Shown in pieces: positions 3,850 to 11,650 of a stretch of DNA of 64,000 bases. How positions within the stretch are numbered: the stretch's first letter is position 1; the number at the start of each line of letters is the position of its first letter. The stretch spans positions 192,001 through 256,000 of the forward strand of contig OY970208.1 of the NCBI GenBank assembly GCA_963713865.1, in the 5' to 3' direction. The translations under genes and the position numbers were made by a program. The notes beneath the pieces are model-generated. The model did no database searches. It saw nothing but the letters and a program-made list of their open reading frames with translations, and was not told the DNA's origin. The stretch is from an uncultured candidate division Zixibacteria bacterium (GTDB taxonomy: Bacteria > Zixibacteria > MSB-5A5 > RBG-16-43-9).

Positions 3850-4527
3850 ATGTGCGGACGTTATACCATAACCGTTAAAGAAGAAATCCTTATCCAGAGA
3901 TTCAAGGTTGAAGATTACCAGGGAGAGCATTTCCCCAGATTTAACGTTGCTCCCAGCCAGAACAATCCCGTAGTTTTAGTCAATGAAAAGAATAATAGAG
4001 CGATGTACCCTGTGAGATGGGGATTAATCCCTTCCTGGGCAAAAGAAGAGGCTATCGGGAACAAAATGATCAATGCCCGAATAGAAACAGTAGCTGAAAA
4101 ACCTACTTTCCGGACCGCTTTTTCTAAAAGGCGATGTTTAGTCCCTGCGGATGGGTATTACGAGTGGAGAAAAAACGGTAAACCGGGCAAAAAGCAGCCT
4201 TTCCGGATAGTCTTAAAATCCAGAGAGCTTTTTGCATTTGCCGGATTATGGGACCTCTGGAAGAATCCAGAAGGAGACACAATCCGCTCTTATACTATCG
4301 TCACCACAGAAGCGGATGAATTAGTGGGAAAGATTCATCCAAGGATGCCGATTATACTCAGACCCGAAAATGAAAATACCTGGATAGACCCTAATCTACA
4401 CGACCCTAATACCCTTATGAAACTCCTTTCCCCCTATCCTGCTGATTTAACCGAGATGTATGAAGTATCCTCTCTGGTAGGAAATCCAGGTGTTGACGTT
4501 GAGGATTGTATCCTGCCTGTTAAGTAA
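3850..4527 (+). CDS. SRAP (YedK/HMCES-like) abasic-site processing protein
   Basis: N-terminal MCGRY, RFNVAP, WGLIP.W, INAR.ET, RRCLVPADGYYEW, IH.RMP. Confidence 0.95.
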   Translation: MCGRYTITVKEEILIQRFKVEDYQGEHFPRFNVAPSQNNPVVLVNEKNNRAMYPVRWGLIPSWAKEEAIGNKMINARIETVAEKPTFRTAFSKRRCLVPADGYYEWRKNGKPGKKQPFRIVLKSRELFAFAGLWDLWKNPEGDTIRSYTIVTTEADELVGKIHPRMPIILRPENENTWIDPNLHDPNTLMKLLSPYPADLTEMYEVSSLVGNPGVDVEDCILPVK

Positions 4528-4598
4528 TAGTTGTTATTTAAAATGGTAGAACAGACATCTTGTCTATTCTTAACTTAATGTAGCGACTGTCTTGAAAA

Positions 4599-5524
4599 TC
4601 AAGCATTTTTTAAAATGGCATTACAGATAATTAGTAATTTGCGCATCACCGCAACCACGGCTACTTTTTTTGCCTTTCCTGAAGCTAATAACCTCTGATA
4701 AAACTCTTTTAGCTTCTGGTTAAATCTTATTGCTACCAAGACAGGCATATACAGGATCTTCTTATGAGTCCACGTCCTCCACTTATGAAGCTTTTACCTT
4801 TCCACTTGCCACTCTCTCGGTTGAAAGGTGACACCCCCGCCAACGCAGATATCTTTTTCCTATCTACTCTCCCCAACTCAGGTAAACAAGAAAGTAAACT
4901 TATAGCGGTGATAAATCCCATCCCTTTTTCCCTTCTTAAAAATCCAACCTTCCGCATAATCTGATCATCTTTTTGAGCTAATTCCTTTATCCTCTCATCC
5001 ATCAGCTCAAGCTCCTTCTCCAATACCTTGATTATCCTTTTAAGGCTTTTTGCCTTTTCCCTCTCTGCTATACGAAGCCTGTTTTTCTCTGCCACTACCA
5101 TTTCCTGCAACTCCTGCCGCCTTTTGATAAGCTCCTGAATCTCCAACTCCATCTCACTTATCTCCCCTAACTCCTCTAACTTCACCACCTGTCCAAATCT
5201 GGCTATAACCCGGGCATCAATCTTGTCCGTCTTCGCCAGTTTTCCTATCCCCCTGGCAAAATGCCTTACCCGTGCAGGATTAACTACATGAGCCTGAATC
5301 CCTAACTCTCTTAACATCCTCCTACAAACCCGCTCATACCCTCCTGATGCCTCCATAACTACCAACTCTACTTTGTTACCCCTTAACCAAGATATGAACT
5401 TCTTAATACCTTTCCTGGTGTTGCTGAAGGTCCGGCGGTGTGGATTAGCAGTATCATCTGCCAAAAGAATGCAAGCTTCAAGCTCCTCTGAACTAACGTC
5501 AATCCCGCAAACTATCTGTTGCAT
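4599..5524 (-). pseudogene. IS110 recombinase/transposase with one frameshift near 4760 (real or sequencing error)
   Basis: GIDVS, MEASG, KTDKIDA, ESG catalytic motifs; after GGRGLIR an alternative frame continues ILYMPVLVAIRFN...GKAKKVAVVAVMRKLL..NA-stop at 4599. Confidence 0.88.
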
Positions 5525-5554
5525 AACTACTCCTCCTTTAGTATAATTTAATTA

Positions 5555-5755
5555 ACTTGCCTCTGGTAGCCCATACTTGCTATGCGGTCTTTTTAACCAT
5601 TCGACTGTTCGAGCTTGCAGAGGCACAAGGGACCTTGCCGACGACCAAGCTACGAACGAGCTTTTAGCCCAAGTGCGACACGATCTGTCGGCAAGGTTCC
5701 CTTCCACCATTGGGTGAAGGGTATATCCCTTATTCACCTGTAAAATATAAACATA
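5555..5755 (-). ncRNA. Putative IS110 bridge RNA (ends approximate)
   Basis: 5' stem-loop (5712-5739), target-binding loop closed by stem 5631-42/5687-98, donor-binding loop closed by stem 5558-65/5618-25; loop guides match the element's own target and donor junctions. Confidence 0.85.
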
Positions 5756-5985
5756 ATATTCAATATACAAGTGCGACCCTTTCAGGGTCGCTTGATATAT
5801 GTGTAAGACAGTAACATCTGATTTGAAGCTTTTGTAGCGGAAACCCTCAGGTTTCCATTGGAAACTTAATATGACAGCCTTACCCTAACCCTATCTTAAA
5901 GAGAGAGGGAGAAGTATTTCCCTCCCCATAGCAGAGAGTCAGACAGGAATGTCTGATCTGCTATCGTTAGGCATAAAACACGCCG

Positions 5986-6678
5986 CTACTTAATCGCTTT
6001 GTGGATGGCACTCGCTCCAAAAAGCAGCCGTTTGAAGGTAACCTCCGAAAAACCGGCTTCTCTTATGATTTCTGCGTATTCTTCTGCTGGATAGAATCGG
6101 GGAATCGTCTGAGAAAGGTAAGTGTAAGCAGATTTGGAACCGGAGATTATCTGACCTACCGGTTTAACTGCCAACCGGATGTAGAGATGAAAGAATTTTC
6201 TGATGATTTTAGACTTCGGCTGGCTGGTCTCCACGCTCACAAATCTTCCCCCGGGTTTTAAAACCCTGTGAATTTCCTTGAGAGACTCAAGAAACTTATC
6301 GCGGTTAAGGTTTATATTCCGCACCGCAAATGAAATTGTCACCAGGTCAAAGGTATTATCCGGAAAAGGGAGGGTATTAATATCGGAGAGTATGAAAGTT
6401 ATACGGGATGACTCTTTTTTCTCCAGGGCTTTACGAATCATCGGAAAGCTGAAATCTGCAGCGAATACTTTAGTCTTTTCCGGAGCAAGCCTGCGAAGAT
6501 AAGAAGCCATCTCCCCGGTCCCAGAACAAATATCCATCCACATCTCCCCACCATCTGCAACTGATATTCTTGCTGCCTTTTTGCGCCAGAAAATATCCAT
6601 CCCGAAGGTCAAAATATGATTAACCAGCTCATAAGTCTGCGGAACCTCAGAAAAAATTTTTTTAATACCTTCTTGCAT
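5986..6678 (-). CDS. UbiE/MenG family methyltransferase
   Basis: YELVNHILTFG.D..WR, DICSGTG, LPFPDNTFD.VTISF..RN, AYTYL..TI..F. Confidence 0.9.
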   Translation of the reverse strand: MQEGIKKIFSEVPQTYELVNHILTFGMDIFWRKKAARISVADGGEMWMDICSGTGEMASYLRRLAPEKTKVFAADFSFPMIRKALEKKESSRITFILSDINTLPFPDNTFDLVTISFAVRNINLNRDKFLESLKEIHRVLKPGGRFVSVETSQPKSKIIRKFFHLYIRLAVKPVGQIISGSKSAYTYLSQTIPRFYPAEEYAEIIREAGFSEVTFKRLLFGASAIHKAIK

Positions 6679-11454: not shown

Positions 11455-11650
11455 AGGAGGGGCGTATTGCAATACGCCCCTACAAAAAATGTAGAGGAAG
11501 GCTTTAGCCTTCCATCATTCGCACAACAAATGAACCTGATCCCGCTTTTGGCGGGACAAGCAGGCTCGCGCTACGAAAAAATATTATATGGAGTGCATTG
11601 ACTGTGTTAATGCTTGATAGCGACCCTGAAGGGTCGCACTACGAAACCGG
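11455..11650. repeat. REP-like cluster including an empty perfect IS110 target (GTCGCACTACGAA, 11633-11645)
   Basis: GGGGCGTATTGCAATACGCCCCTAC; AGCGACCCTGAAGGGTCGCACTAC. Confidence 0.8.

Follow-up and report, generated by a model that had tools for sequence, protein, structure and literature searches.

What directs a mobile element to the foot of a palindromic repeat? The question is raised by a unit of 1,190 nucleotides (nt) at positions 4582-5771, on the minus strand, of a 64,000-nt stretch of DNA (referred to as the window) from an uncultured candidate division Zixibacteria bacterium. The unit has CT at both termini, which makes it 1,188 base pairs (bp) plus a shared CT, and it adjoins a hairpin that resembles a repetitive extragenic palindrome (REP). 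REPs are mobilised by REP-associated tyrosine transposases (RAYTs), and a GTAG tetranucleotide marks their heads. The original prediction, made from the letters alone, was that the unit is an IS110 element whose bridge RNA is programmed against a GTAG-bearing REP of its host. Comparison of proteins, RNA folds, guides and insertion sites gives much the same answer: the unit is very probably an insertion sequence of the IS110 group, with bridge-RNA-guided serine/DEDD mobility like that of IS621.

The element and its recombinase

Membership of the IS110 family is demonstrated by the encoded protein, for which Pfam, the NCBIfam model NF033542 and an alignment with IS621 all agree with the original assignment. 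The recombinase gene of the window copy reads, before a frameshift, as an open reading frame (ORF) of 263 amino acids (aa; 4733-5524, minus strand) with a DEDD RuvC-like domain and a Tnp serine domain, recognized by Pfam as PF01548 (DEDD_Tnp_IS110; 6.3e-27) and PF02371 (Transposase_20; 1.3e-07). Two further copies, B and C, lie elsewhere in the host genome. The gene of copy C is one open frame that encodes an intact protein of 308 aa with all catalytic residues present. This protein scored 211.4 bits against NF033542 (“IS110 family RNA-guided transposase”; cut-off 140), and its residues 6-307 aligned with the IS621 transposase (8wt6_A; E 1.5e-36, 129 bits); it also matched ISCro4 (E 1.4e-34). 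Residues D9, E58, D100, D103 and S238, the last within ESG, are invariant among 30 relatives and stand opposite D11, E60, D102, D105 and S241 of IS621, where the first four form the DEDD motif and S241 is the serine nucleophile (PMC11208158).

The ends of the unit are also those of an IS110-group element. Its termini read GGGTCGCA/CT-TGTAT... on the left and ...ACAGTCG-CT/ACATT on the right, the slash marking the boundary with the flank. Between CT core and start codon the left non-coding end measures about 245-247 nt, and the right measures 15 nt from stop codon to core (4584-4598, minus strand). The IS110 group is distinguished from IS1111 by a left non-coding end much longer than the right and by the lack of long subterminal inverted repeats (PMC11208160). 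The much longer left end is present in the window element; long subterminal repeats were not searched for separately. As far as membership can be tested by sequence, the element has every feature that would be expected.

The original prediction described the enzyme as compact, about 308 aa once repaired, and as coming from a distant lineage. The length was correct, but no repair is needed given that copy C is intact. Relatives made up 6,351 of 8,000 scored candidates. The closest outside the host genome, P0002, comes from metagenomes or metagenome-assembled genomes (MAGs) and shares 76% identity; most share 40-48% and are 305-320 aa long. The lineage is therefore populous rather than isolated, and 308 aa is the usual size for the clade. 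The proposal of a candidate new bridge recombinase is valid, with the qualification that this candidate is one among thousands. Its small 308-aa enzyme makes it a convenient candidate for bench tests.

The frameshift in the window copy results from a 1-nt deletion (AAA to AA) at 4758-4759, alignment column 1012, which is common to copy B and is not found in copy C. Downstream of the deletion, the C-terminal part of the recombinase continues in the shifted frame as a 49-aa ORF (4599-4748, minus strand), and in copy C this part is continuous with the upstream part. The frameshift removes the last 54 residues, from the end of the Tnp domain, including invariant positions. Programmed frameshifting was ruled out, since the gene is uninterrupted, in one frame, in copy C and in the metagenome contigs. 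It is a distinct possibility that the frameshift arose during assembly or polishing, at a short run of A, and that all three copies are really intact. The host genome is a single contig of 2,723,046 bp (40% G+C) from a metagenome-type assembly of 94% completeness, the difference amounts to one base (AAA vs AA), and every contig spanning 4758/4759 from three metagenomes (X1, X2 and X3) has the extra base and hence the intact frame. However, a run of only three bases makes a homopolymer error less expected, the same assembly has the full run in copy C, and the metagenome contigs come from populations that are not necessarily this strain. As assembled, the window copy would be movable only with enzyme supplied in trans from the intact copy C.

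The predicted bridge RNA and its guides

The original prediction of a bridge RNA with two loops and a CT core depended on an RNA that folds so as to expose the guides in two internal loops, and such loops were found. The predicted fold of the left end has an energy of -85.1 kcal/mol (z = -4.9), with none of 200 shuffled sequences as stable, and comprises a 5' hairpin followed by two stem-loops. The target-binding stem-loop (5632-5697, minus strand) consists of an 11-bp basal stem, a bulged A, a 5-bp stem, an internal loop with UGUCGCACU on its 5' side and UUCGUAGCU on its 3' side, and an apical hairpin, GGGCU-AAA-AGCUC. The donor-binding stem-loop (5559-5624, minus strand) has stems of 7 bp and 6 bp, an internal loop with the strands AACAGUCGAA and CAUAGCAAGUA, and a 5-bp closing hairpin. 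All four guide strings sit on the expected sides of these internal loops.

Additional evidence for both stem-loops came from a covariance model built from the window sequence alone, with the loops kept unpaired (139 positions, 40 pairs). Immediately 5' of the gene and in its orientation, the model matched over its full length at 54 of 80 reference-genome loci and 54 of 79 metagenome loci (E ≤ 1); one more match, a weak one, was on the minus strand. Among 52 distinct reference-genome rows, 89.8% of cells are paired, vs 66.1% after shuffling and 31-43% when the columns are slid by 1-3, and changes on both sides occur in 35 of the 40 pairs; the alignment was fitted to the model, so these counts lean towards the structure, and the slid controls have the same fit. 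None of 500 shuffles reached any of the measures. By helix, the proportion of paired cells is 93.3% and 88.6% for helices 1 and 2 (target stem-loop) and 87.0%, 81.6% and 92.8% for helices 3 to 5 (donor stem-loop). The sequence of the donor loop is itself kept across relatives, as AACAGTTGC... on one side and YAT..GCAAGG. on the other.

The segment CCCUUCACC, just 5' of the target stem-loop, can take part in either of two hairpins but not in both at once; on the minus strand of the window these span 5713-5738 and 5699-5721, or 34-59 and 51-73 counted along the left end. The alternatives pair either GGUGAA..GGG with CCC..UUCACC or CCCUUCACC with GGUGGAAGGG.

Every string and coordinate given in the original prediction is present in the sequence. 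The minus-strand DNA reads GTCGCACT at 5679-5672, TTCGTAG at 5656-5650, ACAGTCG at 5608-5602 and TAGCAAG at 5582-5576. Flanks of the copies, 24 genomic sites and metagenome contigs agree with the assignment of these strings as guides. In the target loop, the left guide GUCGCACU (5672-5679, minus strand) takes in 6 nt of the left target along with the CU core and is the same as the top strand, GTCGCA-CT, at insertion sites. The right guide UUCGUAG (5650-5656, minus strand) is the complement of CT-ACGAA, an assignment that draws on the right flanks of copies and on relatives. Together the two guides spell GTCGCA-CT-ACGAA. The left guide matches at 8 of 8 positions; the right guide matches at 7 of 7 in the consensus site and in two observed flanks, and at 4-6 of 7 in the three flanks within the host genome.

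In the donor loop, the left guide ACAGUCG (5602-5608, minus strand) matches, at 7 of 7 positions, the last 7 nt preceding the right CT, the left donor half-site ACAGTCG (4590-4584) in which the short right end terminates. The right donor guide, AU-[A]-G-CAAG (5576-5583, minus strand), stands opposite CT-TG-T-AT: CAAG pairs with CTTG, G forms a G·T wobble, one A is bulged, and AU pairs with the AT of TGTAT. The original prediction had identified the donor guides and the wobble correctly but had left the distal bases unmatched, whereas these bases pair across the one-base bulge. The right donor guide of IS621 has the same components, AU, G·T wobble and CAAG, but with two flipped-out U in place of the single bulged base (PMC11208158).

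The bases that follow the right guides behave as the “handshake” bases of IS621 do, the first of which complements position 7 of the other DNA. In the window element these bases are CU (5649-5648, minus strand) 3' of the right target guide and UA (5575-5574, minus strand) 3' of the right donor guide. The C complements G, the base at position 7 of the donor, rather than A, the base at position 7 of the target, and the U complements this A.

The guide assignments were also examined in relatives, where 109 model hits, less 35 with an unparsable loop segment or on the minus strand, left 74 usable loci. The 7-mer on the 5' side of the donor loop had a single exact occurrence within 800 nt past the gene at 61 of these 74, and CT came next in all 61; the remainder comprised 11 loci with no or more than one occurrence and 2 with a contig end. 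For 59 rows left after removal of duplicates, the five-base right flank predicted from the 3' side of the target loop matched the real flank at a mean of 4.44 of 5 positions (38 perfect, 12 with four matches, 6 with three and 3 with two). By comparison, 1,000 permuted pairings gave a mean of 1.49 +/- 0.14 and a maximum of 1.97. The assigned loop positions are thus guides in this clade. The handshake rule held from right target guide to donor position 7 in 56 of 58 rows (G:C 55, A:T 1). From right donor guide to target position 7 it held in 35 of 36 rows, where the tallies are C:G 31, A:T 4 and T:G 1; these 36 rows are those with a left guide ending in CT or TT, the other 23 of 59 being left out for uncertain register. 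The window element belongs to the rarer A:U class, a compensatory change.

Metagenome and MAG relatives share with the window element the length class, the protein domains, the donor loop and the right-end terminus, and differ from it in their target loops and insertion sites. A rival proposal is that the protein picks the site through the REP hairpin or its sequence, with the complementarity of the RNA loop being incidental. The short hairpin is present at all occupied left flanks observed, vs 10 of the 24 perfect sites, and a 2026 preprint reports a stem-loop near the target as an extra determinant of specificity for the related element ISPpu10, which would fit the hairpin found at every occupied site here. 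However, the target loop predicts the real right flank even in relatives with quite different targets (4.44 of 5 vs 1.49 when permuted), and a truncated sister element in the same genome, the stub L004, differs from the window element both in its left target guide and in its flank, and the two agree with each other. Moreover, a requirement for a hairpin would supplement RNA guidance, not supplant it. Recognition by the protein in place of the RNA is therefore highly improbable.

Target repeat, occupied sites and the empty allele

The predicted target is abundant in the host genome. The 13-mer GTCGCACTACGAA has 24 exact copies, 59 with at most one mismatch and 101 with at most two, whereas 30 permuted 13-mers averaged 0 exact copies and 1.9 with at most one mismatch. 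All 8 of the other host-family genomes have exact copies (9-22 each), and 32 genomes from beyond the family, but within its order or class, have none. The motif stands at the foot of several hairpin types, with the short GCGACCC...GGGTCGC hairpin at 10 of the 24 perfect sites. Most copies adjoin hairpins, and extragenic placement was judged by eye for listed contexts only. CTAC, which is GTAG read on the other strand, lies directly 3' of the hairpin arm plus A, and its first two letters are the core CT. Insertion at the GTAG/CTAC foot of the hairpin, which the original prediction had compared with IS621, was thus upheld, at the same relative position as that of IS621 in E. coli REPs.

The repeat is related to REPs by its form, and RAYT genes flanked by it were looked for as well. 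Six ORFs in the host genome exceed the cut-off of NF047646 (REP-associated tyrosine transposase). No 13-mer, with up to two mismatches, lies within 600 nt of these six ORFs, and a REP1-like hairpin is present about 120 nt upstream of one of the six only. Because none of the six RAYT ORFs is flanked by the repeat, it is called REP-like here.

At the window insertion, the hairpin GCGACCC-TGAAA-GGGTCGC (5773-5791, minus strand; 8 pairs, loop of 3) adjoins the element on its left. Its 3' arm plus A is read as the left target half-site GTCGCA (5777-5772), which is followed by the left CT core dinucleotide (5770-5771). At the other end, the right CT (4582-4583) is followed by the right target half-site ACATT (4577-4581), which matches the guide at 2 of 5 positions beyond the core. 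The three copies in the genome, the window copy, copy B (2436498-2437687) and copy C (1081803-1082993), are identical over 1,190 nt but for the one-base difference in the gene. Their left flanks before CT are GGGTCGCA, GGTTCGCA and GGGTCACA, with the six-base ends GTCGCA, TTCGCA and GTCACA, and their right flanks after CT are ACATT, ACGAG and ACGAT, respectively. In all three, the left flank forms the 3' arm of a GCGACCCTGAAAGGGTCGC-type hairpin, represented in the window at 5791-5773.

Metagenome contigs add occupied sites. A partial copy on one contig (L096), 99% identical to the element, has the right flank CT/ACGAA, and a whole element (X3 record 14) has GGGTCGCA on its left and ACGAATTTG (ACGAA) on its right. 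Left flanks with GGGTCGCA in other contexts are present in X2 record 12 and X1 record 8. All occupied left flanks observed, three in the genome and three in contigs, have the short hairpin; these numbers are small, and the contig flanks were retrieved by similarity to the window flank. The original prediction would have been undermined by other copies at sites unrelated to GTCGCACTAC; the sites found are related to it.

Two metagenome contigs (X3 record 13 and X4 record 15, from two metagenomes) hold the window site without the element. They run from the side of the neighbouring SRAP gene to 4583 and then straight into TGCGACCCTTTCAGGG..., so that the site reads ...AATGTAG/TGCGACCC..., equivalent to GGGTCGCA-CT-ACATT. 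This empty allele has one CT, and insertion was therefore precise at CT. ACATT is present in it as well; the poor right match thus predates the insertion and does not reflect a later change. In an X1 contig, 13 different letters stand in place of 4545-5856, between 5857 and 4544, which gives an allele of this intergenic region that lacks the repeat as well as the element. The presence of the element is polymorphic; the metagenome contigs document presence only, and the best-matching metagenome may be the source sample.

Related elements extend the range of right flanks. Right-end tips 84-94% identical to that of the window element are found at contig starts in two other genomes (three in G001, one in G008), with the flanks CT-ACATC, CT-ACTAT, CT-ACTAT and CT-ACAAA. 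The right-end terminus is conserved in these sister elements and in a relative from Escherichia coli. In all right flanks observed CT-AC is constant and positions 12-14 vary, which provides a data point on mismatch tolerance at occupied right targets. Among the genomes of 40 relatives of the host, the whole element was found in the host genome only, and a search of the 8 other host-family genomes, which are fragmented assemblies, with the RNA model revealed no further copies and no stubs.

The ends of the element suggest how its RNA would be expressed. Joining the right end to the left places a -35-like TTGATT (4602-4597, minus strand; overlapping the stop codon) 17 nt from a -10-like TATATT (5762-5767, minus strand), with 9 of 12 matches to the consensus, and the two hexamers come together only after circular joining of the ends. 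In the integrated form the best promoter has 8 of 12 matches and none has 9 or more. The promoter of IS621 is likewise divided across the joined right and left ends (PMC11208160), and TTGATT-17-TATATT is probably a promoter made by end joining.

Transcription, RNA-protein binding and catalysis may be envisaged for the window element along the following lines. Excision and joining of the ends would create the promoter TTGATT-17-TATATT, which would drive an RNA of about 180 nt from the left end. The first internal loop of this RNA would pair with both strands of GTCGCA-CT-ACGAA at the CTAC foot of REP-like hairpins, and the second with the element's own joined ends, ACAGTCG-CT-TGTAT. The recombinase would then swap strands at the CT core, leaving CT on each side and no further duplication.

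Several points weigh against an RNA-guided and still mobile element, in addition to the fit of the covariation alignment to its model. An Rfam 15 scan of window 4300-6100 (E ≤ 10) gave chance-level matches only and no bridge-RNA family. The second handshake base is non-complementary on both loops. The 7-nt left donor guide lacks a pair to the core C, having A where IS621 and most relatives have C; the same A is also found in four relatives (L088, L021, L070 and L113). The genome has 24 empty perfect sites, yet its three copies all lie at imperfect ones, and two of the three (the window copy and copy B) carry the frameshift. No circle-junction joint was found in the metagenome contigs aligned to the window, and contigs of this kind cannot reveal rare forms. 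The idea that the perfect sites had been emptied by re-excision was dropped, given that three copies are too few and that metagenome copies occupy perfect sites.

The frameshift shared by two copies, with its loss of 54 C-terminal residues including invariant positions, and the lack of a circle junction in the aligned contigs would be consistent with a family that is a dead relic in the host genome, where the match of guide and target records past activity only. Such a relic is improbable, however, since the gene of copy C is intact at 308 aa with all catalytic residues, the three copies otherwise agree throughout their 1,190 nt, related populations have an empty window site and hold the element elsewhere, and contigs of three metagenomes carry the intact frame.

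Known systems and a sister element

The closest well-described parallel is IS621 of Escherichia coli, which has a 177-nt bridge RNA. The two elements share both protein domains, the catalytic residues and a full-length protein alignment (E 1.5e-36), as well as a long left end, a short right end, a CT core and a promoter split over the joined ends. Both RNAs form a pair of stem-loops, each with an internal loop, and the sizes are similar: 66 and 66 nt in the window element vs 65 and 68 nt in IS621 (PMC11208158). The IS621 target is ATCAGGCCTAC (ATCAGGC-CT-AC), and the E. coli REPs quoted in the same source end in ...GGCCTAC (PMC11208160), which puts IS621 at the same relative place, CT/AC in the CTAC foot of a REP hairpin. 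The elements differ in the target itself (GTCGCA-CT-ACGAA here vs ATCAGGC-CT-AC) and in the right target guide, for which wild-type IS621 has 4 nt and the window element 7 nt. The left target guide of the window element matches at 8 of 9 positions, its left donor guide lacks the core C pair, and its right donor guide has a bulge of one base rather than two. The proteins are only distantly similar (129 bits), with 308 aa here vs 326 aa, and the window element comes from an environmental, uncultured host of 40% G+C.

ISPpu9 and ISPpu10 of Pseudomonas putida, also of the IS110 group, occur in several copies at one fixed position in a species-specific REP (PMC12288879). Their REP sequences and guides differ from those of the window element, and ISPpu9 has an extra small RNA module, ssr9, which was not seen here. 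REP targeting by IS110-group elements (IS621, ISPpu9, ISPpu10) and guidance by a bridge RNA are already established, and the window element leaves the existing understanding of how such elements work unchanged. Its value is as a natural and internally consistent example of a bridge recombinase, with the full guide code in one genome and public metagenomes. In the same data, 24 perfect sites stand empty, others are occupied despite 1-3 mismatches, an occupied site has an empty allele, and a sister element is retargeted to another family of repeats.

An E. coli search using a relative from Providencia led to a further IS110-family pseudogene, L184 (NZ_AP019189.1, 1888865-1890831). The possibility that L184 is IS621 was ruled out; it is a different pseudogene. 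The Providencia protein scores 114 bits against IS621, and the protein of the window element 129 bits. L184 is present at 80% coverage or more in 1,033 of 5,426 complete E. coli genomes, about a fifth, and has the right-end terminus CAAGACAGTTG-CT, as in the window element. Its target loop predicts CT-GAGCT, and its real right flank is GAGCT. The alignment of the window RNA model with L184 is weak (8.7 bits, E 0.62).

The sister element in the host genome is represented by L004 (genome 596639-596745), a solo left-end stub that is 77% identical to left-end positions 1-92. Its left flank is ATGCCC-CT, and the stub ends exactly after the DNA for its own left target guide, TTGCCC-CT, and continues into ACAATATTT, in which the right target ACAAT matches. 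The left target guide of L004, UUGCCCCU, is unlike that of the window element and matches both its own flank and a second REP-like family. This family consists of the palindrome GTAGGGGCA-loop-TGCCCCTAC followed by AA (e.g. 489494-489526, 1750034 and 2429174), and its 11-mer TGCCCCTACAA, which ends in CTAC, has 21 exact copies and 161 with at most one mismatch genome-wide. The sister element seems to be aimed at this second REP-like family. At 489123-489794 (L012), a full palindrome of this family lies in frame inside a RAYT-like ORF, encoding ...VGAGLKPAPT...; the ORF scores 61 bits on NF047646, under the cut-off of 80.

The DNA for a left target guide amounts to a perfect left half-site plus core, and is therefore a possible false left junction. 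It is conceivable, if rather doubtful, that the recombinase can take this guide-coding DNA for such a junction and delete the interval from its CT to the right-end CT; L004, a single case, fits such a deletion. If self-truncation of this kind were general, bridge-RNA elements would have a built-in truncation site and stubs would be countable footprints of its use. A literature search on stubs and self-targeting of bridge-RNA elements, including the available part of PMC12288879, found no description of an L004-type stub, which does not imply that such stubs are unpublished.

The surroundings of the window element include further copies of its target motif. Unoccupied motifs lie at 437-449 (one mismatch), 11565-11577 (two) and 11633-11645 (none; genome 203633, plus strand), the last found by motif search as a perfect GTCGCACTACGAA at the same type of hairpin. 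The flank of this perfect motif resembles that of the occupied site on L096. The element itself stands between a gene for an SRAP peptidase (3850-4527, plus strand) and a gene for a UbiE-type methyltransferase (6678-5986, minus strand). Just to the right of the element, in the GACAAGATGTCTGTTC region (4549-4569, minus strand), is a short hairpin-like repeat of the AGAACAGACATCTTGTCT type, and repeats of this type recur beside several copies of the target motif, e.g. near 101660, 531425 and 628572.

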